Assembly (NCBI GenBank): GCA_009903795.1
Contig: WYER01000003.1
Location: 8,637 to 72,636, forward strand
Origin: Nitrososphaerota archaeon
GTDB lineage: Archaea; Thermoproteota; Nitrososphaeria; Conexivisphaerales; UBA164
Length of the DNA: 64,000 bases
Direction of reading: 5' to 3'
Each line of letters starts with the position of its first letter. Position 1 is the first letter of the stretch. Below the pieces are notes generated by a model, which saw only the letters and a program-made list of their open reading frames with translations, searched no databases and was not told where the DNA came from. Positions 28,360 through 58,164 of this stretch are shown in pieces. The translations under genes and the position numbers were made by a program.

Positions 28360-28632
28360 TTAAAAATAATAAAAGCTATCGAACTCCCCTTTGTATTGTT
28401 CCCATTTTACTTCTAGGTTTTCAACCTCAGAAAGAGGAGGGCCTCTCCTGCATTCTTCTATAAAATCTTCTATCTGATCTTTTTCTCCCTCGACGATGAT
28501 CTTAACTGTACCATCAGGAAGGTTTTCTGCGTAACCTTTTAGGCCAAGTTTATCAGCAACTCTTTTCGCAAAAGCCCTATAGCCAACGCCCTGAACAAGA
28601 CCTTCAACAATTATTTCTGCTCTTGCTTTCAT
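28360..28632 (-). CDS. acyP: Acylphosphatase
   Basis: 90 aa with VEGLVQGVGYR...GYAENLPDGTV. Confidence 0.9.
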   Translation of the reverse strand: MKARAEIIVEGLVQGVGYRAFAKRVADKLGLKGYAENLPDGTVKIIVEGEKDQIEDFIEECRRGPPLSEVENLEVKWEQYKGEFDSFYYF

Positions 28633-30059
28633 CCCTTTACCACTCCTATGGGCCTCATCCTAAAAACCCGCTTTGCGAGCCCTGCTAGCTCGCTCGCTTC
28701 AGCTACAAGGTCCACGTCTTTATACGCAAGGGGCGCTTCTTCTGTAACAGTCTCTTTACTTGCCGCCCTTATTATTATCCCCTTCTTCTCAAGTTCTTCT
28801 ACAAGCTGCTTGTAAGTCCACGTCCTCTTTGCGGCGCTCCTGCTCATGTATCGTCCAGCTCCGTGAGCCGCAGAACCAAAACTTAGCTCTTCGTTTGAGC
28901 TCAATCCAACCATAACGTAGCTGCCTGTGCCCATGCTGCCGGGTATAAGAACCGGCTGACCTATGTTTCTGTACTTAGCTGGAATAAGCTCTGAACCAGG
29001 ACCGAAAGCTCTGGTAGCGCCTTTCCTGTGCACTATGGTTTCCATAAAGCTTCCATCTACTTTGTGCTTTTCCCTTTTTGCTATATTGTGAGCAACATCG
29101 TAAATAAGGTGCATGTCAAGCTTTTCTGGATCATCAAATATCTTGAAGCTTTTTCTTACTTGATAGGTTACTAGCTGTCTGTTTGTCCACGCAAAGTTAG
29201 CTGCGCTTATCATTGCTTTAATGTAATTCTGTCCTTCTTCGCTCATGTAAGGTACTGCTGCGAGTTCTCTGTCAGGAAGCCATATGTTGTACTTTTTAAG
29301 TGCTCTTTCCATTATTTGCAGATAATCGCTGCATACTTGATGCCCGTAACCCCTACTGCCTGTATGTATCAGGACCAAAACTTGGCCTTCCTGCACGACC
29401 CCCATGCTCTTTGCAATGTGTTCATCAAAGATCTTATCAACTACTTCAACTTCAAGGAAATGATTGCCGCTCCCTAGGCTTCCTAGTTGGGATGCTCCTC
29501 TCGCTTTTGCTTCTTTTGAAACCTTTGTAGGATCAGCGCCAGGCATGCTTCCTCCTTCTTCAGCTAACTCAAGGTCATCTTCCCAAGCGTAACCCTTTTC
29601 TAATGCCCATTTCATACCAAGCTTTGCGACTTCATCCAATTCTGATTGTGAAAACGTAAATCCACTTTCGCTTCCCAACCCGCTCGGAACGTTCTTGTAG
29701 AGGCTGTCCATCAGCTCTTTTAGCCTAGGCCTTACATCTTTTTCAGTAAGGTTGGTCCTGACAAGCCTTACGCCGCAATTTATGTCATATCCTACGCCCC
29801 CAGGACTTATAACACCGTTTTCAACGTCAAAGGCTGCGACACCCCCTATTGGAAAGCCATAACCTTCATGACCGTCAGGCATTACATAAGAATACTTTAG
29901 TATTCCGGGCAAAGTAGCAACGTTCATGGCCTGAGTAAGGGTCCTATCCTGTTTTATTCTCTGAATTAGCTCGTCAGTTGCATAAATCCTTACAGGAACC
30001 CTCATCGGTCCTTCTTTTGAAATTTCCCACGTTACATCTCCAACTTTCTTTATTTCCAT
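28629..30059 (-). CDS. rtcB: RNA-splicing ligase RtcB
   Basis: 476 aa with MPDGHEGYGFPIGGV, GYDINCGVR, GSGNHF, HTGSRG and a C-terminal HGAGR motif. Confidence 0.95.
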   Translation of the reverse strand: MEIKKVGDVTWEISKEGPMRVPVRIYATDELIQRIKQDRTLTQAMNVATLPGILKYSYVMPDGHEGYGFPIGGVAAFDVENGVISPGGVGYDINCGVRLVRTNLTEKDVRPRLKELMDSLYKNVPSGLGSESGFTFSQSELDEVAKLGMKWALEKGYAWEDDLELAEEGGSMPGADPTKVSKEAKARGASQLGSLGSGNHFLEVEVVDKIFDEHIAKSMGVVQEGQVLVLIHTGSRGYGHQVCSDYLQIMERALKKYNIWLPDRELAAVPYMSEEGQNYIKAMISAANFAWTNRQLVTYQVRKSFKIFDDPEKLDMHLIYDVAHNIAKREKHKVDGSFMETIVHRKGATRAFGPGSELIPAKYRNIGQPVLIPGSMGTGSYVMVGLSSNEELSFGSAAHGAGRYMSRSAAKRTWTYKQLVEELEKKGIIIRAASKETVTEEAPLAYKDVDLVAEASELAGLAKRVFRMRPIGVVKG

Positions 30060-38766: not shown

Positions 38767-38998
38767 TTTCTGACATCCTCTCCGTCCCAAAGGGCTATGT
38801 TACCTTAGGGCGGATCATAGGTTCGTGGTTTATCGCCTTCATCTTCATCACTTCATAGCTAGTGGGATTTACCAACCCCGCTCCGTTCGTCCAGCGATAG
38901 ACCACGGGCTGTGCCTCCAGCCACTTACCCCTATCCTCATTGGACTCAGCGATATGTAGAGCCCTCGTGGGGCGTCCCTCTACGGGACACAGTTTAAT
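38767..38998 (-). ncRNA. Unclassified GC-rich structured RNA candidate (reduced RNase P RNA is one hypothesis)
   Basis: This is about 230 nt with no ORF, and it is markedly more GC-rich than its surroundings. The ends pair (CUGUGUCCC at 38984-38992 with GGGACGGAG at 38780-38788). Internal hairpins include GUAGAG...CUCUAC and GGCUG-GAGGCA-CAGCC, and there is a GUGAUGA K-turn-like motif. A TATA box lies 26 nt upstream, and the RNA sits 13 nt upstream of tRNA-Gly on the same strand. Confidence 0.5.
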
Positions 38999-39017
38999 AC
39001 GCTTTACAATGTCTTAG

Positions 39018-39029
39018 TATTTAAATTTT
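39018..39029 (-). promoter_or_regulatory. Archaeal TATA box (AAAATTTAAATA on the minus strand) for the structured RNA / tRNA-Gly unit
   Basis: Read directly. The spacing of about 26 nt to the first paired nucleotide of the RNA fits archaeal promoter geometry. It lies only about 12 nt from the IS left end. Confidence 0.5.
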
Positions 39030-39041
39030 ACCCAGCCTCTA

Positions 39042-39800
39042 GGGGTGCCGTTAACTTAAGGCTTAAAATTTATTTTTCAGTGGGGCCCTCTTTCTAGCAA
39101 ATGATTACACAAACCAGAAAAAGGACCCAATAGCACTTATACTCTATGCCTTATATCTTTATTTCTCCAGTTTGAGCTTAAGAAGGGCTTCCCATGTACT
39201 CGAGCCAATAATCAAGAGAAGCCACGTTGCAATATGGAAATGGATTCAGAAGTATTCTTTCGTATTAGATTCCTTTGACGTTGACAAACACGATGTTAAT
39301 TCCATATTTATTGATGAAACTGAAATAAACGTTAGAACGAAGCTTGGTTATGGGTAGCGTATGAACCTCAACTCAAAGCGTTCCTATCATTCCACATAAG
39401 CTGGCACCAAACTCTTTCGATGCATACTATTTCATAAGGAAGCTTGTAAAGTATTGCAGGAAGACTATCTACACAATCGGAGCTCTTTGGTACGTTGATG
39501 CATGTAGGTGGGCAGGGGTAGACATGTTATGTATGGAGAGAGCCTGAAGAACTTCATGTAAAGGATGAATGAATACATAAAGGACAGGACAAAAGCTTTT
39601 GACGACATTTTCCCGTGCAAAAAGCCAAAATTTGAGCACGTAAAGAACTGGTTCAAAGCATTCAGATTCTTCTATGTATTCACAAACGAGAAAATTGGTT
39701 CAGCTCCACTTTCAAATGAACAGCTGTCTGAATGGATTAAGCCAATTTTGTTGATTGCAAGCATGAGGTGATCAGAATGAGCTTAAGTTAACGGCACCCC
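39042..39800 (+). mobile_element. IS element (IS6-like by transposase remnants) with 19-bp terminal inverted repeats and a disrupted transposase
   Basis: The left inverted repeat (IRL) is GGGGTGCCGTTAACTTAAG at 39042-39060. The right inverted repeat (IRR) is CTTAAGTTAACGGCACCCC at 39782-39800, its perfect complement. TCTA flanks both ends. The transposase reads across three frames with stops: ...SLSLRRASHVLEPIIKRSHVAIWKWIQKY...IFIDETEINV..., then W.AYEPQLKAFLSFHIS, then ...YIKDRTKAFDDIFPCKKPKFEHVKNWFKAF. Confidence 0.75.
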
Positions 39801-40132
39801 TCTAGAAGAGGCGAGGCTTTTGTTCGTTTTGTAAACCTAGAAGAATATTCATACACTATTAACTATAAACGCTTCTTATCCTTTTATTTTATATCAATCG
39901 GCATGCCACAATAAGTTTGAGAATCCTTTTTCGTACCTTAGCCATTTCTCTTTGTGAAACTTTTTAGGCTAGCGCATTGTAATTAAGCCTCCTTAGATGA
40001 CCATCTTGTTGCCAACGTTTTTATCCTTTCGCTCTGAGAATTTTGCGATATAGCCCACATTGGCTCTGTGCATTTTGTAAAGCTTAATGATTTAATGATT
40101 TCATGTTTAACTTAGGCAAAGGTTATGCCTTT

Positions 40133-40270
40133 TTATGAACATGTAGTGTGCCTTTTGCATTTACTGTAAAGCTGCTTTACCCTTCTGGTTGATATTCCTG
40201 CTGCGTCTGCAATTTCTCTGTTAGTAAATTTTTCTTTAGCGTTAAAGATTGAAATGATCTTTGTTAAGCA
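40133..40270 (-). pseudogene. Orphan helix-turn-helix gene fragment (45 codons, no start)
   Basis: My own translation gives CLTKIISIFNAKEKFTNREIADAAGISTRRVKQLYSKCKRHTTCS*. This is a typical HTH (REIA...GIS..TV) such as a transposase or resolvase N-terminus. It has no Met and an upstream stop. Confidence 0.3.
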
Positions 40271-40364
40271 TCACAGCATGCTTTTTTATCAAATTTATCC
40301 ATAATCTGCTTAATTTGTTTACAAACTAGATGTTTAAGAGTATGAGATAATTTCCAAATAAATT

Positions 40365-43106: not shown

Positions 43107-44081
43107 CTAAAGTCCAGCTATTTCTTTCAGAACAGACTTAAAGCTAGATATAAACCTTTTAGATTCTTCGTCTGAATTTCCAACATAAATTCCAAATCCA
43201 TAAAAAAATGATTCAACAATGCTGTTTACTGTAAACATCTGAATATAATTATGATAATATGTTACTGTTCTCTTGGGAGGAAGCAAATGAAAAACTATTG
43301 CGTAGTCGCTTTTTGAAACGTTATAAAGGGTTTTTGAAACTGTTAGTAACAGGAAGGCAAGGTCCTGCAGCTCTTTTTGCGTAAGCTTTGTTATAGGTTT
43401 ATAATGTGTAGTGCTTGTTATCCTTATTTCGTTAGTTCTTGAAGGGGACCATGGGTAGTAAGCTATCCAGTTTTCATTGCTATAAATCAGCTTTGAACCA
43501 GATTCTTCAGCTTTTATTACTTCGCATAATGGGCATGAATTTTTTTCTTCAAAAGCCTTCATGAACCTGTTCATCTCTTCGTTTATGGTTTTTGGAACAA
43601 AAGGTAGCCCTAATACGTCAAAATGAGGGTGTCCCTCCATGTCTTGGCCTTTAGCGGAAAGCATTATAACGCCTATGTATATAACGCGGTTCAGATCAGC
43701 TAGCTTTTTGTAAGTTTCCTGAATAGCGAACAACGCTTCGTATATTTGATCTTTAGAAAGCTCGTGAAAAGGCACGTGTTCCTTCCCTATGAAAATGGTG
43801 TAATGCTTTCCTTTAGCTGGTTCACTTTTGTATGGCCAATCGTTCCACTCTCCTGTATATTTATCATCAACAAGCGGTAACGGATGCTCCCCAACCAAAA
43901 CGTCCCAGCTTTCTATATCGTCTTTCTTTATTCTGAGAAAGCTTGACCTGTTCGTGTTCTCTTTTAATATAGAAAAAATGGGAGTAAATTCATTATTACA
44001 AACAGGGCACTTTATTGGAAAATTAGCGTCCCATTGTATATGGGTAACGCCAGTTATATTATCGTACCTTATTTGTGGCAT
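43107..44081 (-). CDS. GalT-like nucleotidyltransferase (HIT superfamily, galactose-1-phosphate uridylyltransferase family)
   Basis: 324 aa, colinear with GalT blocks: CPVCNNE, GKHYTIFIGKEH, GHPHFDVLG (HxHxQ-like), CPLCEVI, ENWIAYYPWSP and YAIVFH. Confidence 0.55.
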   Translation of the reverse strand: MPQIRYDNITGVTHIQWDANFPIKCPVCNNEFTPIFSILKENTNRSSFLRIKKDDIESWDVLVGEHPLPLVDDKYTGEWNDWPYKSEPAKGKHYTIFIGKEHVPFHELSKDQIYEALFAIQETYKKLADLNRVIYIGVIMLSAKGQDMEGHPHFDVLGLPFVPKTINEEMNRFMKAFEEKNSCPLCEVIKAEESGSKLIYSNENWIAYYPWSPSRTNEIRITSTTHYKPITKLTQKELQDLAFLLLTVSKTLYNVSKSDYAIVFHLLPPKRTVTYYHNYIQMFTVNSIVESFFYGFGIYVGNSDEESKRFISSFKSVLKEIAGL

Positions 44082-44875: not shown

Positions 44876-45520
44876 ATGGCTTTAACTGTGTTTTTTGTTA
44901 GACATGGATATGCAGAAAACAACAGGGACGGATTGTTTCCTAACGATGTAGAAAACGAATACAAACTTACAGAAAAAGGTTTAGAGCAGGCCAAAGAAGC
45001 AGCTGAATTTTTACTAAATACAAAGGCCGAGGCAATATTTTCAAGCCCAATATACAGAGCTTACCAGACAGCAAAGATAATAGGTGAAAAACTTTCCCTC
45101 GAAGTTGTAAAAGACGAAAGGCTTAGAGAGGTCGAGCTTGGAAACCTTAGAAACAAATCTACAAAGGAAATATTTGAAAAAGACCCTGAGTGGTTTATGG
45201 AGTACTTTAATTCTGAAACCGTATATGGGTTGGAAAAGTACCAGAAGATAAGGGAAAGAATGCTAGATTTTGTTAAGGACACTTTTGAAAAAGGTTACAC
45301 AAAAGTAATAGCAGTTAGCCACCTGGAACCGATAAGAGCTCTTCTTACTCTCCCGCTTAATATTAATGGAAAAGAAGTCAGAAAGATAGAGATACAACAC
45401 GCATCAATAAGCACGATGAGGTTTGAGGATCCAGATTTAAAAGAAATAAGAATACTTTCAGTAGGCTGTGTCCCGCTTAACCGCTTTTTGCATGATGCCA
45501 ATAACTTCAGCAAAAAATAA
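44876..45520 (+). CDS. Histidine phosphatase family protein (PGM/CobC-like)
   Basis: 214 aa with FVRHGYAENN (RHG) and AVSHLEPIRA (second His) motifs. Confidence 0.8.
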   Translation: MALTVFFVRHGYAENNRDGLFPNDVENEYKLTEKGLEQAKEAAEFLLNTKAEAIFSSPIYRAYQTAKIIGEKLSLEVVKDERLREVELGNLRNKSTKEIFEKDPEWFMEYFNSETVYGLEKYQKIRERMLDFVKDTFEKGYTKVIAVSHLEPIRALLTLPLNINGKEVRKIEIQHASISTMRFEDPDLKEIRILSVGCVPLNRFLHDANNFSKK

Positions 45521-45539: not shown

Positions 45540-45800
45540 ATGTTTATGAAATTAGTCCTGTACGGGAGCCTTTCAAGTAAGCTTGGAAAAGAACTTAACA
45601 TTGAAGTAAATGGAGAAAAAAACCTCAAAGAAATACTTGAAGAGCTTTCTGCAAAAGAACCAAATTTAAAACCAGACAATCCAAACATTCTGGTTTTTGT
45701 AAATGACGTTGAGGTATCACTTATAGGGGGTCTTTCTTACAAGCCTAAAAACGAAGATAAAGTACTTGTATTGCCTGTAGCGCATGGCGGTCAGTATTGA
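45540..45800 (+). CDS. Ubiquitin-like beta-grasp protein (MoaD/ThiS/SAMP family) with a GG-QY C-terminus
   Basis: 86 aa. ...VFVNDVEV......L...DKVLVLPVAHGGQY* matches the MoaD/ThiS C-terminal pattern (N...v......l.dgDev.l.PpvsGG) but carries two residues after GG. Confidence 0.7.
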   Translation: MFMKLVLYGSLSSKLGKELNIEVNGEKNLKEILEELSAKEPNLKPDNPNILVFVNDVEVSLIGGLSYKPKNEDKVLVLPVAHGGQY

Positions 45801-46132
45801 AGGTTTTGATAGATAAGGAACCTGATGGACCAGTTATTTTCATGGTTAACCTAAGAGATGAATGCGTGAAGAAACCTGGCGTTCTTTACCTGGTAGCTTT
45901 ACAGACAATGTTTGCTATACAGAAGGGCGAGCTTCTTGCGAAAAAGCCCGAGATAGATTTTCTCATGAGGTTGGCAAAAACAGATCAGATTTTTTTGGCG
46001 AAAAAGATCTGCAGCGGTACAGACCACATTGTTTACATAATAGAGAGCGATGATAAAACCGTAGAAAAAATATCTGAAGAAGATATAAATGAGGCAGAGC
46101 TTTCAGCTCTTGTAAGCGCTAAAAAAAGTTAA
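45797..46132 (+). CDS. Cgi121-like protein (KEOPS subunit homologue, short form)
   Basis: 111 aa with a TTG start overlapping the Ubl stop. KPEIDFLMRLAKTDQIFLAKKI resembles the Cgi121 motif (EILVRASGQRQIHEAIK in the Methanocaldococcus protein). The assignment is by eye only. Confidence 0.45.
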   Translation: MKVLIDKEPDGPVIFMVNLRDECVKKPGVLYLVALQTMFAIQKGELLAKKPEIDFLMRLAKTDQIFLAKKICSGTDHIVYIIESDDKTVEKISEEDINEAELSALVSAKKS

Positions 46133-46159
46133 AAACATTTATGTAAACAAAAATCTCAT

Positions 46160-47221
46160 TTGCATAACATAATGATTAGCGAAGAATTTTTAAACCGTTA
46201 TTCAAGGCAGATTGTTCTTAAAGATATAGGCTTAGAAGGCCAAGAAAAGCTTCTAAAATCTAAGGTTACGGTCGCAGGCGTTGGGGGACTTGGTTCTATG
46301 GTTGCTTCGCTGCTTGCAAGGATAGGTTTTGGAGAAATTCATATAGTTGACAGAGATGTCGTATCGTTAAGCGACCTGCACAGACAGATTCTCTATGATG
46401 AAGGAGACTTAGGCATACCAAAAGTTTATGCTGCAGAAAAAAAGCTTAAACAAATAAATTCTGAAGTTAAGGTTTATCCGCATGCTTTAAGCGTTAACAA
46501 TTACGGTATGATGAAGCAAATAATCAACGATTCAGATATAGTAATAGACGGGCTGGATAACATGCTAGCAAGGTATAACTTGAACATTTTGGTAGTAACC
46601 CTAGGTAAGCCTTACGTCTTTGCATCAGCTATAGAAAACTACGGAAATCTTAGCAGTATAGTTCCAGGTAAGACTCCATGTCTGAACGAGTTTTATGGAG
46701 ATTTTAAAGACCGTGAACTTCCTACATGCGCTACTGCAGGTGTAAACCCGGCTATAGTTACCTCAATAGCTTCTTTGGAAGTTAACGAAGCGATAAACCT
46801 TGTTTTAAGGGGGAGATCTCCTTTTTTTGGAAAACTTGCTCTGCTCGACCTTAACATAGGAAGCCTTGAAACTGTAGATCTTAAGAAAGATCCAAAATGT
46901 GATGTTTGTAACGCGAAGGCAAAACCAGAGATAGAGCCTCGCGTAGAAATTAGTTGCAGCAAAGACGGGTTTACTACAGTTTTTGTTAACAACTACGTTG
47001 ATGGTTTAAATCTTGAGAACGTTTCAAGAAATTCCCGGATTAGAGTCGCTTTAAAAAATGAAAATTATATATCAGGATTTTATGAAGATTCAAGGTTTAC
47101 ATTATTCAGCACAGGTTATGCTGTCTTTCAGTTTAAATACTATGATGATGAAATAAAAAACAAGGTAGAAAAGATTTATGAGCTCATCGTTGGGCGAGAC
47201 TATAGTAAAAAGGCTCTCTGA
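46160..47221 (+). CDS. E1-like activating enzyme (ThiF/MoeB/UbaA family) with an extra ~100-aa C-terminal domain
   Basis: RYSRQIVLKDIGLEGQEKLLKSKVTVAGVGGLGS, VDRDVVSLSDLHRQ, and C..AGV plus CDVC zinc motifs. The probable true start is the ATG at 46172 (MISEEF...). Confidence 0.85.
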   Translation: MHNIMISEEFLNRYSRQIVLKDIGLEGQEKLLKSKVTVAGVGGLGSMVASLLARIGFGEIHIVDRDVVSLSDLHRQILYDEGDLGIPKVYAAEKKLKQINSEVKVYPHALSVNNYGMMKQIINDSDIVIDGLDNMLARYNLNILVVTLGKPYVFASAIENYGNLSSIVPGKTPCLNEFYGDFKDRELPTCATAGVNPAIVTSIASLEVNEAINLVLRGRSPFFGKLALLDLNIGSLETVDLKKDPKCDVCNAKAKPEIEPRVEISCSKDGFTTVFVNNYVDGLNLENVSRNSRIRVALKNENYISGFYEDSRFTLFSTGYAVFQFKYYDDEIKNKVEKIYELIVGRDYSKKAL

Positions 47222-47855
47222 GGTTTATAAGATAGAAAAAGACGAATTCGCCCCGCTTAACTTTAAAGATCCTTTCTTGATATTGATTTCAATTATACTT
47301 AGCCAGAACACTACAGACAAAAATGCATTAAAAGCAATGAAAAACCTCTTGGCCAGCAGACTTACAACCCCCCAGGACTTTCTTAAAGCTGGTACAGAGA
47401 AAATAAAACAACTTATAAAAGTAGCAGGTCTCTATGAACAGAAAGCAAATACGATTATCAGCTTAGCAAGCTGGACTCTCGAAAAATACGGAGGAGACCT
47501 TACAAAGCTGAAGCAAGAAGAACCTGAGAAGGTTTACGAGGAGCTTACTAGAATAAAGGGCATAGGACCCAAAACTGCTGACGTTTTTCTCATATTCTAT
47601 CTTAAAGTGAGGACATTTCCAATAGATACCCATATAAGAAGAGTAGTAAAACGCATAGGAATAGCAGAAGGAAGCTACGAAAATATGAAAAAGAAACTCC
47701 TTCAAGTGTTTCCCGATCCGTTTAAAGCGCATATATTGCTGATAAAACATGGAAGAACAACCTGCACCGCCAGGAATCCTAAATGCAATCAATGCGTAAT
47801 CAATAATTTTTGCAAATATTATTCATCTTTAAATTATTCTAAAAAAGATAATTAA
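47178..47855 (+). CDS. nth: Endonuclease III (HhH-GPD DNA glycosylase with a 4Fe-4S cluster)
   Basis: 225 aa with ILSQNTTD, IKGIGPKTADVFL, IDTHIRRV and CTARNPKCNQCVINNFC motifs. Confidence 0.9.
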   Translation: MSSSLGETIVKRLSEVYKIEKDEFAPLNFKDPFLILISIILSQNTTDKNALKAMKNLLASRLTTPQDFLKAGTEKIKQLIKVAGLYEQKANTIISLASWTLEKYGGDLTKLKQEEPEKVYEELTRIKGIGPKTADVFLIFYLKVRTFPIDTHIRRVVKRIGIAEGSYENMKKKLLQVFPDPFKAHILLIKHGRTTCTARNPKCNQCVINNFCKYYSSLNYSKKDN

Positions 47856-47889: not shown

Positions 47890-49245
47890 TCATTTGTTTG
47901 AATCCACAGCTAAAGTTTCAAAAAGCGAAGCAAACGCGTTCTTTGCGCTCTTAAAGTATAAGGATGAACCTTCGAGCTCTGAATAACGGTAAACGAACCC
48001 TTCAGAGAAATTTTTTGAAATTCCAGCCGGTACCCCCCAGTTTATCGGGTTAATTTTTAAGCTCGCCAACACATCTTTAGCATCAACATATTTGCCCGGT
48101 TCAAAAGAATACAGGCGCATGTCATTTTCTACCCAAACGTATCTGTGACTTTTCAGAAACTTTATAACGTTTTCAGGAAAGTATACGGATGGACCTGACC
48201 TTATTTCAAAGTTTCTCTTATCAAACTCAAGAAAAACCGCAATAGTTACCCATGTATCATACTCTGAAACTGTAGACCTGATAATTCTATAACCGCTGTT
48301 CTTAAACGCGTTTCTTACAGCTTCTTCTGCTTTATAGTACATACCCCATCTAATGTCCTCAACAAGATCAGGAGCCTTAAAAGAAATCATTACAACGTTG
48401 TTTGATGTTCTATCTTCAGGCACTGGTTGTCTTTCAGCAAAATATTTAACATCAGGGGATTTTAAGAAATTTAAAGCTAACACTTTCAGCTTTCCCAAGA
48501 CCCTGTTTTTGATTGCAAGGGCTAAATTCCTTTTCTGATCAACAGGGTCCAAAATTATTACCGGCGTAGTAAAAACTTTTTTTGGGTCATAATCATAAGG
48601 CTCAAGCGCCACAACTTCTCCCTGTTCCCATGCTACGATGTTTTTAAGTATTTCTACAAATGACCCATACTTTACTGCAAGTACCTCAGATAAATAACCA
48701 CTAACGCCGCCTACTTTAATTTCAGCGCCATAGAGCCCGTTGCTTTTAAGAAACTTTTTAAAGACCCTTACCTCGCCCCTGAGCTCAGGGTTAAGTTTTT
48801 TCAAAAGATACTCGTTATGATACCTGCTTCTGTCCATGCTGGTTATCCACTTTCCAGGTGGAACGTCTGCGCATGGTACCAGGTTGAACTTTATGCCGTT
48901 TAGCATGCCTTCAATGTAAGGATGTTCTGCATAATTCTTCCAATAATTCAGGTCTTTGACGACCTCTTCAAGCTCTTTCAGCCCTTTTTTCCCTATTCCA
49001 TCAGATCCCAGAGCGGGGTCGAACAGAACAAAAAAATCAATATCTGCGTCCTCTGGCAACCAGGTATCTCTTGCATAAGAACCTCCAAGAATAAATTTTA
49101 AACCTCTCCTTCTAAGCCTTTCAGATATAATGTTTTCAATTTCTTTAAGCCTCTCTCTATCTTTTTGACTTGGGGTAACCTGCTGTTTTATTTGTTCTAC
49201 TAATTTCTTTATCTCTTCATAGTTTATATCAAATTCAAATTTCAT
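47890..49245 (-). CDS. cca: CCA-adding enzyme (archaeal class I tRNA nucleotidyltransferase)
   Basis: 451 aa with LGGSYARDTWLPEDADIDFFVLF and YAEHPY motifs. Confidence 0.9.
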   Translation of the reverse strand: MKFEFDINYEEIKKLVEQIKQQVTPSQKDRERLKEIENIISERLRRRGLKFILGGSYARDTWLPEDADIDFFVLFDPALGSDGIGKKGLKELEEVVKDLNYWKNYAEHPYIEGMLNGIKFNLVPCADVPPGKWITSMDRSRYHNEYLLKKLNPELRGEVRVFKKFLKSNGLYGAEIKVGGVSGYLSEVLAVKYGSFVEILKNIVAWEQGEVVALEPYDYDPKKVFTTPVIILDPVDQKRNLALAIKNRVLGKLKVLALNFLKSPDVKYFAERQPVPEDRTSNNVVMISFKAPDLVEDIRWGMYYKAEEAVRNAFKNSGYRIIRSTVSEYDTWVTIAVFLEFDKRNFEIRSGPSVYFPENVIKFLKSHRYVWVENDMRLYSFEPGKYVDAKDVLASLKINPINWGVPAGISKNFSEGFVYRYSELEGSSLYFKSAKNAFASLFETLAVDSNK

Positions 49246-57045: not shown

Positions 57046-58164
57046 TTGAACATTCTTGCTACAGCTATAAGAGGCTTTGAAGAATATTCAGCTTATGAAG
57101 CTGAACTCCTTGGATGCAGGGCTGTTGAAACAAGGCAAGCGCGAGTTGTTCTTGAAGGGGATTATAGCTGCGTTTATGTGTTGAACAATTTTGCAAGAAC
57201 CGTCAATAAAATTCTTCTATTATTAAGCAGGGAAACTGTCCAAAACTTGGATGATATATACAACAAAGCTTTATCAATAGATTACAGCTTTATAAAGCCT
57301 GACCAATCATTTGCTGTTAGATCTGAAAGAAGCGGAATACATGAATTCACATCTCTCGATATAGCAAGGGTTGTAGGGCAGGCAATAATAGATTCTTATC
57401 AGAGAAGCACAGGTAAAATTCTCAAAGTTAACCTTGATGAGCCAGATGTTGAGATAGAAGCTGACCTTATAGGTAACGAGCTCTTCATAAGCATAAACAC
57501 TACAGGTAATGGGCTTAACTTTCGAGAATACAGAATTTATAATCATCCATCTTCTTTAAAGCCAACCCTAGCCTCTTCGCTGATCATAATGTCTCAGTGG
57601 GAAGGATCAAGCTTTATAGATCCTTTCACTGGAGGGGCAACCATACCAATTGAAGCCGCGCTTTATGCTAAATCATCGCTAGTGAAGCCATCTGGCAAAT
57701 TTCTTTATAAAAAGCTCAGCTTTTACGATGATAAAGCCGAAGAAGAAGCTTTAAAAAAGATAGGTAAAAAGTTTGACCTTAAAGATAAAATCGTAGGTGT
57801 AGAAATTTCTCGAAAGCACTTTACTGGCGCGTTGAAAAACGTAAGCGCAGCCAACCTTGGAGAAAGCATAGATATTATTCTTGGGGACTCGATAAAGATC
57901 GATTTCCAAAGAAAATTTAAATTCCTCGTTTCAAACCCACCATACGGCATAAGAAGCGGAAGAAAAGAAAAGGTGCTTAAGATTTATGAACTTTTTGTAA
58001 AAAGGATGGATAAAATTCTTGAAGATAAAGCTCGTGGGGTGATGATTACAACTGAATATAAAAAGCTTACAGAACTTTTAGGAGAAAGAGGTTACAAAGT
58101 CCTTAAGGTTAACACGGGGCTCCATGGTAAGCTCTGGGTTGGGGCAGTGCTTTTTAGTGTTTAA
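57046..58164 (+). CDS. THUMP-domain RNA methyltransferase (Trm14/TrmN-like N2-guanine class)
   Basis: 372 aa with an N-terminal ferredoxin-like plus THUMP region, DPFTGGATIPIEAA (SAM motif I) and LVSNPPYG (motif IV). Confidence 0.75.
   Translation: MNILATAIRGFEEYSAYEAELLGCRAVETRQARVVLEGDYSCVYVLNNFARTVNKILLLLSRETVQNLDDIYNKALSIDYSFIKPDQSFAVRSERSGIHEFTSLDIARVVGQAIIDSYQRSTGKILKVNLDEPDVEIEADLIGNELFISINTTGNGLNFREYRIYNHPSSLKPTLASSLIIMSQWEGSSFIDPFTGGATIPIEAALYAKSSLVKPSGKFLYKKLSFYDDKAEEEALKKIGKKFDLKDKIVGVEISRKHFTGALKNVSAANLGESIDIILGDSIKIDFQRKFKFLVSNPPYGIRSGRKEKVLKIYELFVKRMDKILEDKARGVMITTEYKKLTELLGERGYKVLKVNTGLHGKLWVGAVLFSV

Follow-up and report, generated by a model that had tools for sequence, protein, structure and literature searches.

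The question raised by this locus is how a ubiquitin-like protein (Ubl) whose reading frame runs two residues past its diglycine could be used by the E1-like enzyme encoded beside it, with a homologue of the KEOPS subunit Cgi121 encoded between the two. The three genes lie at 45540-47221 of a 64,000-nucleotide stretch (64 kb) of contig WYER01000003.1, which was analysed as a whole and is called the window here. The host was taken as a non-ammonia-oxidising Nitrososphaeria (Conexivisphaerales-like) archaeon. The GC content of the window is 38%, and its closest relatives are labelled Nitrososphaeria or Conexivisphaerales archaea. We believe that the locus is the Nitrososphaeria (thaumarchaeal) Ubl-Cgi121 module, split into two translationally coupled genes directly upstream of a MoeB/ThiF/UbaA-type E1 with the usual TBP-like domain, and that the Ubl would be processed by an unlinked peptidase and then activated by the E1. 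We put the probability of this reading at about 0.6 overall, and lower for its later steps. Its main parts are as follows.

45546..45800 (84 amino acids, aa) or 45540..45800 (86 aa), plus strand: Ubl of the ThiS/MoaD/Urm1 beta-grasp family, from Pfam ThiS and Urm1, structure-profile matches, orthologues and substitution ratios (dN/dS).
45786-45791 and 45792-45797, plus strand: diglycine codons GGCGGT and tail codons CAG TAT (Q-Y), from the raw sequence.
45797..45800 (4 nucleotides, nt), plus strand: TTGA, in which the Ubl stop (TGA) overlaps the start (TTG) of the Cgi121-like gene, from the raw sequence.
45797..46132, plus strand: shortened Cgi121 homologue, 111 aa, TTG start, assigned by profile searches and hhalign.
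46172..46918, plus strand: E1-like adenylyltransferase domain of MoeB/ThiF/UbaA type, from Pfam ThiF (1.1e-61), NCBIfam and alignment to E. coli ThiF.
46919..47221 (structured at about 46943-47191), plus strand: predicted TBP-like C-terminal domain of the E1, from AlphaFold2 (AF2) and Foldseek.

The set of Ubl, Cgi121-like protein and E1 was confirmed in the raw sequence and in the list of open reading frames (ORFs). It recurs with equal lengths and in the same order in relatives as distant as about 36-55% identity, in loci L001-L009 and L013-L019 from metagenome-assembled genomes (MAGs), and the conservation of the arrangement, a point on which the initial annotation turned, was thus borne out. 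The nearest homologues recovered were 98-99% identical and the farthest about 36%. Compared with L013/L014 (about 88% identity), dN/dS was 0.11-0.23 over all three genes and 0.12-0.15 for the Ubl. All three are real ORFs that are conserved and evolve under purifying selection. Since its orthologues in L013/L014 begin with MKLxLYG, the Ubl likely starts at the second ATG (45546) and then has 84 aa. The E1 ORF (46160-47221) has 353 aa from its TTG and 349 aa from the ATG at 46172. The latter is the likely start because the orthologues are 349 aa long. The gap between the middle ORF and the E1 is 27-39 nt, according to the E1 start chosen.

The Ubl matched Pfam ThiS (35.7 bits, cut-off 22.5, E = 1.3e-8) and Urm1 (26.1 bits, cut-off 21.8, E = 1.1e-5), both above the gathering thresholds. 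It scored under the cut-off of each of the NCBIfam equivalogs Urm1_like, moaD_arch and SAMP1, and its membership is therefore supported at the superfamily level only. A profile of the Ubl and its orthologues matched the solved structures of CysO, SAMP1, Urm1, MoaD and Ta0895, with the CysO-type carriers 4n6e_B and 3dwg_C as the best solved relatives. The alignments stopped at the C-terminal diglycine of the solved proteins. Therefore, the diglycine in the window corresponds to the reactive terminus of the family, with two extra residues behind it, and a MoaD/ThiS/SAMP-type beta-grasp protein is indeed present, as had been reported from the sequence. The C-terminus reads LPVAHGGQY, so the diglycine is not the translated end with a free carboxylate; Q-Y and then the stop codon follow it. 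HGG is invariant in 11 aligned orthologues and across all C-terminal states of the Ubl. In the MoaD-MoeB and ThiS-ThiF complexes, the E1 adenylates the carboxylate of the terminal glycine, and any extension past the diglycine therefore needs prior removal. The E1 sits one gene downstream of the Ubl in all window-type loci.

Context look-ups and one genome-collection scan placed the relatives in two settings. The window-type setting (the window, L001-L009 and L013-L019) has the order histidine phosphatase, Ubl, short Cgi121, E1 with its TBP-like domain and endonuclease III, and in L007 the Ubl and Cgi121 are fused. The S17e-type setting (L010-L012, L020-L034 and L036) has the order S17e, a SerK-like gene (276-283 aa), Ubl and full-length Cgi121, with fusions in L031, L033 and L036. 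The fused proteins P0007 (193 aa), P0008 (210 aa), P0009 (244 aa) and P0010 (251 aa) each consist of Ubl, AAHGG, a serine, a linker and Cgi121. P0007 has the synteny of the window, with the histidine phosphatase before the module and the E1 and endonuclease III after it. The S17e-type fusions carry a Ubl that is a plain orthologue of the window Ubl. No genome carrying both locus types was found in the genome scan, which used a narrow pattern (only 72 raw matches over the whole collection) on MAGs. Because the Ubls are orthologous and no scanned genome has both types, the two settings were read, on limited evidence from sequence comparison, as one relocated module rather than two paralogues. 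Exact-sequence look-ups placed the short and canonical Cgi121 in different assemblies. Both forms occur within Conexivisphaerales (P0006 versus P0013/P0060).

The SerK-like gene of the S17e-type loci (L010:3920-4747; equivalents in L020-L034 and L036) lies between S17e and the Ubl and has no precomputed Pfam match. It gave a weak NCBIfam match to SerK (ADP-dependent serine kinase)/SbnI, 57.7 bits against a cut-off of 380. A different arrangement was seen at L035:5446-7301, where a Ubl-E1-TBP fusion (P0142, 441 aa, internal VGGGS) directly follows a PALP-family (cysteine-synthase-like) gene near a TusA gene. This gene order points to a CysO-like sulfur relay other than the Cgi121-linked module.

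The genetic link of Ubl and Cgi121 is real, as the initial annotation had proposed, but it is not new. A Ubl domain was fused to Cgi121 in all thaumarchaeal genomes available in 2010, apparently co-transcribed with S17e (Makarova & Koonin, Archaea 2010:710303; PMC2948915), and the window holds a split form of that fusion. Two of the three features that had been called unusual are published architecture. The kind of module has been known since 2010; what is new here is the split, the two residues past the diglycine, the minimal Cgi121 and the E1 in the operon.

The junction was then read codon by codon. The Ubl stop overlaps the TTG start of the 111-aa ORF in the TTGA at 45797-45800, and the two residues past the diglycine are present in the raw sequence, both as first described. 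An equivalent ATGA or TTGA overlap is present in relatives. By its geometry, the overlap is a termination-reinitiation style of coupling. The Ubl and Cgi121 of the window do not form a single polypeptide: their ORFs lie in different frames, and a stop separates them. A frameshift or readthrough fusion was rejected, since stops close the Cgi121 frame upstream and no slippery heptamer lies at the junction. The distance from the GGNGGN glycine codons to the Cgi121 start codon is 1-9 nt in nearly all split loci and about 5 nt in the window. These codons (GGCGGT in the window, within the junction at 45786-45800; equivalents in L001-L030) resemble the Shine-Dalgarno sequence GGAGG. The diglycine codons may, on this resemblance, double as the ribosome-binding site of the downstream Cgi121 gene.

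The relatives form a natural series of Ubl ends. The end is exactly at the diglycine in L008/L019 of the window type and in most S17e-type loci. Two residues follow it in seven lineages (QY in the window, KN in L013, RD in L014, KY in L018, AQ in L001, IQ in L005 and SK in L015). Three residues follow it in L029, and the Ubl is fully fused to Cgi121 in L007, L031, L033 and L036. The window clade has no stop directly after the diglycine; the Ubl frame continues for two codons to the TGA that overlaps the start codon. The last residue of the tail is set by this overlap (xxT-TGA or xxA-TGA), and the first is free. Given the position of the stop at the fission junction and the variable dipeptides, the tail seems best explained as a by-product of fission and overlap, that is, of stop-codon placement, rather than as a conserved propeptide. 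By-product or not, it still blocks the glycine that the E1 must adenylate. The precursor-type Ubl proposed earlier was only partly upheld. Of the observations named as refuting it, distant orthologues that end at the diglycine were indeed seen, and the junction DNA suggests that the tail reflects stop-codon placement, but seven lineages have the two extra residues, and four independent fused lineages keep AHGG invariant.

The residue after the diglycine is serine in every fused form (GGSEA, GGSGF, GGSSI and GGSTP in P0007-P0010), and GGGST is found in the Ubl-E1-TBP fusion P0142. Serine also follows in two short tails, GGSK before the stop (L015:2300) and GGSQG before the stop (L029:7839). This serine could reflect linker composition or a cleavage determinant. 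In principle, a Gly-Ser junction would allow an N-to-O acyl shift.

The middle ORF had been called Cgi121-like, and this assignment was upheld, though not by the curated family models. There was no match to Pfam, including PF08617 (CGI-121), at E <= 1, and the NCBIfam Cgi121 model PRK14886 gave E = 6.9e-8 and 32.6 bits, under its cut-off of 40. In a comparison set of canonical Cgi121 proteins, 15 of 31 match Pfam CGI-121. Profile-to-profile alignment with canonical Nitrososphaerota Cgi121 by hhalign gave 99.5% probability and E = 6.4e-23 over 94 columns, and a custom hidden Markov model (HMM) from canonical Cgi121 sequences gave E = 3.5e-20. An exhaustive profile search with the middle ORF (1.8 billion representatives) returned mostly proteins of about 140-160 aa, several of them named KEOPS Cgi121 by their source. 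The best non-self matches of the profile were the fused proteins P0007-P0010, and there were weak matches in the PDB to MJ0187 and PF0523. Judged by these profiles, the middle ORF is a true but shortened Cgi121 homologue. It has 111 aa versus about 140-160 aa in canonical Nitrososphaerota Cgi121, with about 30 residues missing from the N-terminus and a further stretch missing internally. Two of its segments bear on function.

45932..45991, plus strand: most conserved Cgi121 segment, LLAKKPEIDFLMRLAKTDQI, from alignment to MJ0187 read against the contacts in PMC7718258.
46091..46129, plus strand: C-terminal helix EAELSALVSAKKS, aligned with canonical alpha8 by hhalign to the end of both profiles.

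Cgi121 binds the tRNA CCA tail (PMC7718258) and Bud32 (PMC8565320). In M. jannaschii Cgi121, the contacts to the tRNA 3' CCA are F21, Q28, K56, M60, Q71, I72, I76 and G80 (PMC7718258). In the alignment to MJ0187, LLAKKPEIDFLMRLAKTDQI corresponds to the CCA-binding helices. M. jannaschii K56, M60, Q71 and I72 align with K49, I53, Q64 and I65, which are all invariant in the orthologue alignment. Helix alpha8 is the Bud32-binding element of Cgi121 and binds the Bud32 N-lobe (PMC8565320), and by alignment the short protein keeps this predicted Bud32-binding C-terminal helix. The genome-collection scan gave one Cgi121 locus in each of the 18 species-representative genomes matched, and the custom HMM did not find another Cgi121 in the 64 kb window. 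The organism's KEOPS Cgi121 is probably this 111-aa protein, which is likely its only one.

The E1 is of MoeB/ThiF/UbaA type. It matched Pfam ThiF with 208.5 bits (1.1e-61) and aligned to residues 8-247 of E. coli ThiF. The NCBIfam ThiF, MoeB and UbaA models matched at e-48 to e-60 with 160-200 bits, all under the equivalog cut-offs, and TcdA matched weakly (3.3e-13, 49.9 bits). A TcdA-like role was rejected, as the similarity to MoeB/ThiF/UbaA is far stronger. The ThiF-family Rossmann domain is present with its Gly-rich ATP loop, Arg and Asp motifs and conserved Cys. The motifs were located as follows.

46277-46294, plus strand: Gly-rich ATP loop of the E1.
46547-46561, plus strand: DGLDN (Asp motif).
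46679-46690, plus strand: first zinc motif, C-L-N-E (residues 170-173).
46724-46744, plus strand: conserved Cys in TCATAGV.
46898-46909, plus strand: second zinc motif, CDVC.

The E1 does not have the four-cysteine zinc site of two CxxC motifs. Glu at the first zinc motif is common to the whole clade of module-adjacent E1s (P0066-P0085); in other archaeal E1s of about 350 aa, the motif is CLEC. From the motif, C-L-N-E may represent a metal site of three Cys and one Glu, or a lost zinc site.

Behind CDVC comes a tail of about 100 residues. The AF2 model of this tail (49-sequence alignment) had a predicted local distance difference test (pLDDT) score of 86.2 and a predicted template-modelling score (pTM) of 0.79, with the topology beta-beta-alpha-beta4-alpha. 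The top Foldseek matches in the PDB were the TBPs 2z8u, 1mp9 and 1cdw (probability 0.97-0.99, query template-modelling score (TMq) 0.53-0.58, root-mean-square deviation 2.7-3.4 A), and the N-terminal domains of OGG1 and RNase H3, also TBP-like, came next. The E-values were weak (>= 0.05), yet the matches were consistent. At the level of the predicted model, the tail is confirmed as a TBP-like domain. A comparison with ubiquitin-fold and rhodanese domains had been suggested, but the fold search led to TBP-like domains. The tail is thus present as first described but not extra, because a C-terminal domain with a TBP-like fold is the standard architecture of archaeal E1s (PMC2948915). The domain may, as first suggested, dock a partner. 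A protein search with the tail alone gave no candidates. Across Thermoproteota, Bathyarchaeota, Thorarchaeota and Caldarchaeales, E1s of about 350 aa are widespread, many of them in genomes without the Ubl-Cgi121 module, and the 441-aa Ubl-E1 fusion (P0142) was also among the matches of the E1 search.

Taken together, we propose the following course. The operon would co-express a Ubl precursor and the tRNA-recruiting subunit of KEOPS 1:1 by termination-reinitiation coupling. An unlinked peptidase, most likely a JAMM/MPN+ enzyme of the kind found in thaumarchaeal genomes or else another peptidase, would expose the diglycine. The adjacent E1 would adenylate the exposed terminal glycine, and the activated Ubl would act as a thiocarboxylate sulfur donor, a protein modifier or both in tRNA anticodon-loop modification. 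A used, and hence exposed, diglycine is favoured by two comparisons among the relatives: HGG is kept in the four diverged fusions and in the Ubl-E1-TBP fusion, and the E1 stays adjacent with all three Ubl end states, namely the exact diglycine in L008, two extra residues in the window and the fusion in L007. A peptidase encoded elsewhere would suit what is known of archaeal genomes, as C. symbiosum and N. maritimus have two JAB genes each and archaeal JAB genes are rarely linked to Ubl genes (PMC2948915). The JAMM motif HxHx(5-14)SxxD was found in none of the ORFs of the window, no JAB/MPN/Prok-JAB Pfam match was found among the roughly 58 of 62 predicted ORFs scanned, and no JAMM gene appeared in the gene tables of related loci, which agrees with the earlier remark that no JAMM protease is nearby.

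Several points weigh against this course. The same Pfam scan found no protease, NcsA/TtuA-type thiolase, MoaE, Kae1, Bud32 or Pcc1 in the 64 kb window; with no partner gene there, we infer every step after transcription. Cleavage at the diglycine in the Ubl-Cgi121 family is not reported in the searchable literature. On the side of Cgi121, the scan behind the single-copy count has a narrow pattern and covers MAGs, which makes that support weak. M. jannaschii I76 is replaced by K69, which is not conserved, and the N-terminal region with the equivalents of F21 and Q28 is shortened and has no reliable alignment. Because of the shortened CCA pocket and the change of I76 to Lys, tRNA binding by the short Cgi121 may be altered. 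The AF2 model of the 111-aa protein (6 sequences) was poor, with a pLDDT of 46, and it was left out of the fold search. Finally, the tail may never be removed, with the Ubl serving as a non-activated partner of Cgi121.

This last point is the core of the main rival explanation, which we regard as unlikely. It holds that the Ubl is a fixed structural or adaptor partner of Cgi121 in KEOPS that is never activated, that the adjacent E1 serves other Ubls such as MoaD, and that the tail is neutral. Such a Ubl might stand in for the N-terminal part that Cgi121 has lost, or bind the E1 or other factors as a non-covalent docking site. The truncation of the window-type Cgi121 falls exactly where a partner domain could make up for it. 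The end of the Ubl is unconstrained after the diglycine, with none, 2, 3 or more than 100 residues following, and within the tail the dipeptides vary and only the overlapping start codon dictates the last residue. No protease is linked to the locus, and the E1 is of the general archaeal class of about 350 aa that is found in many genomes without the module. However, HGG is invariant in four independently diverged fusions and in the Ubl-E1-TBP fusion, which a diglycine that is not used would hardly explain. The E1 also stays adjacent whatever the end state, and the diglycine in the profile aligns with the reactive terminus of solved sulfur carriers.

A bolder form of the processing scheme takes the Ubl as a genuine precursor throughout the family. 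Everything after the invariant HGG, be it 2-3 residues or the whole of Cgi121, would be cleaved off, so that a single message or polypeptide gives equimolar amounts of an E1-activatable sulfur carrier or modifier and the tRNA-recruiting KEOPS subunit, with a protease that is unlinked and possibly not of the JAMM type. Serine after the diglycine in every fused form leaves room for self-cleavage. We consider this extension doubtful. If it is true, it would be the archaeal counterpart of the eukaryotic ubiquitin-ribosomal-protein fusion genes, and wobble-U thiolation (or KEOPS modification) would be physically tied to t6A37 synthesis.

It is quite improbable, in our view, that the 111-aa protein is a neofunctionalised Cgi121 paralogue that acts as a tRNA 3'-end adaptor for a Ubl/E1 sulfur relay, for example by presenting tRNA for thiolation, with the canonical Cgi121 encoded elsewhere. 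In favour of this, no canonical Cgi121 is as short as this protein, which has no match to Pfam CGI-121, stays under the NCBIfam cut-off and has a changed I76 pocket residue. Its locus also differs from that of the S17e-linked canonical gene, and the two forms both occur within Conexivisphaerales. Against this, no scanned genome has both types, the S17e-linked loci show the same Ubl-Cgi121 pairing, including fusions with a Ubl orthologous to that of the window, and the predicted Bud32-binding C-terminal helix is kept.

TcdA is an E1-like enzyme that cyclises the KEOPS product t6A. A role outside tRNA thiolation, either as a CysO-like carrier for thiolation of cysteine or small molecules or through an E1-like enzyme acting on tRNA as TcdA does, draws on the CysO-type best relatives (4n6e_B and 3dwg_C), the SerK/SbnI-like gene adjoining the Ubl in S17e-linked loci, the Ubl-E1-TBP fusion beside a PALP enzyme and TusA, and the weak TcdA match (3.3e-13), but it is very improbable, as neither a cysteine synthase nor a SerK-like gene is present in the window, the match of the SerK-like gene is far under its cut-off, the match of the E1 to TcdA is about 45 orders of magnitude poorer than that to MoeB/ThiF/UbaA, the E1 retains the Cys and CxxC features typical of Ubl-activating enzymes, and the recurrent fusion partner is a tRNA-binding protein.

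The genes on either side of the module are as follows.

44876..45520, plus strand: histidine phosphatase (dPGM-like), from Pfam His_Phos_1 (8.5e-40), NCBIfam dPGM_arch (7.5e-48, under its cut-off) and synteny.
47178..47855, plus strand: endonuclease III (Nth-like HhH-GPD glycosylase with a 4Fe-4S motif), from Pfam HhH-GPD (6e-20), NCBIfam nth (1.2e-41) and synteny.

The histidine-phosphatase gene lies directly upstream of the Ubl on the same strand, and most window-type loci keep it beside the module. Co-transcription with the module is one possibility, mere proximity the other. A serine/phosphoserine link was considered and rejected: the two histidine phosphatases look dPGM-type, and the SerK-like gene, a weak match, is found in S17e-type loci only. 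The start of the endonuclease III gene overlaps the 3' end of the E1 by 44 nt (47178-47221), and this adjacency is kept in all window-type loci, including the most distant (L007 and L008). The minus strand at 43107-44081 encodes a conserved neighbour of 324 aa, in which two CxxC motifs and one HPHFD motif occur. Its best Pfam E-value was 0.016 (not significant), and NCBIfam gave a weak GalT match (5.5e-12, under its cut-off). It is probably a GalT/HIT-type nucleotidyltransferase.

Other observations concern the rest of the window. Rfam, but not ARAGORN, gave a tRNA over 143 nt at 508-650 on the minus strand (49 bits), probably an archaeal tRNA with an intron. Between tRNA-Gly and the L11 gene lies a stretch of about 1.5 kb that is poor in ORFs (38860-40360) and holds no Rfam family. 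The short broken ORFs in it (e.g., 39172-39357 and 39565-39771) resemble remnants of an insertion-sequence transposase. Several genes for tRNA processing are dispersed through the window: an RtcB ligase at 28629-30059, a class I CCA-adding enzyme at 47890-49245, convergent and two genes downstream of the E1, and the tRNA G6 methyltransferase Trm14 at 57046-58164. We saw no sign that their presence goes beyond coincidence.

The link of Ubl and Cgi121 in thaumarchaea has been an unexplained observation of comparative genomics since 2010, and no later experimental work on it was found in the searchable literature. The natural series of junctions (exact diglycine, two or three extra residues and full fusion, sometimes with the E1 in the operon) makes processing of the Ubl directly testable. 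It also sharpens the questions of whether the diglycine is exposed and adenylated, which protease is responsible, and what the effect on tRNA modification or KEOPS is. A processed Ubl would give Ubl-fusion precursors linked to the translation apparatus a precedent in prokaryotes, and an unprocessed one would mean that a Ubl domain has been co-opted as a fixed accessory of KEOPS. Either outcome is mainly of interest to specialists in archaeal Ubl systems and tRNA modification.

Among known systems, the closest is the thaumarchaeal Ubl-Cgi121 fusion (PMC2948915). The lineage is the same at the phylum level, the domain order is the same, with the Ubl N-terminal and Cgi121 C-terminal, and its S17e linkage recurs in the S17e-type loci found here. 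The window differs in having separate genes that overlap by 4 nt, a Ubl with two residues past the diglycine and a Cgi121 of 111 aa, and its module adjoins the E1 and endonuclease III instead of S17e. The E1 resembles the archaeal E1-TBP proteins in its ThiF/MoeB adenylation domain with conserved Cys, its TBP-like tail of about 100 aa and its class of about 350 aa. It differs in the first zinc motif, C-x-x-E instead of C-x-x-C, and in falling under the UbaA, MoeB and ThiF equivalog cut-offs. Ubl-E1-TBP fusions occur in Thaumarchaeota (PMC2948915).

The SAMP/UbaA and Urm1/Uba4 systems share with the window a beta-grasp Ubl with a diglycine and a MoeB-type E1, and a role in tRNA wobble thiolation and protein modification is proposed for both (in part from PMC2948915). 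The window Ubl differs from theirs in its two residues past the diglycine and in its coupling to the gene of a KEOPS subunit. SAMP and Urm1 proteins are translated ending exactly at the diglycine, and none of them is known to be joined to a KEOPS subunit, by fusion or by coupling. Prokaryotic Ubls of the precursor type with a JAMM gene in the same cluster include QbsE/QbsD of Pseudomonas thioquinolobactin synthesis and the Caldiarchaeum ubiquitin with its Rpn11-like protease. In these too, residues past the diglycine need removal before adenylation by the E1, whereas the window has no JAMM gene in 64 kb and its tail sequence is not conserved. In eukaryotes, cleavage is proven for the ubiquitin-ribosomal-protein fusion genes of the UBA52/RPS27A type. 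The partner in the archaeal fusions is a tRNA-modification subunit and not a ribosomal protein, but like those genes, the fused relatives of the window translate a Ubl with an intact diglycine ahead of a component of the translation apparatus.

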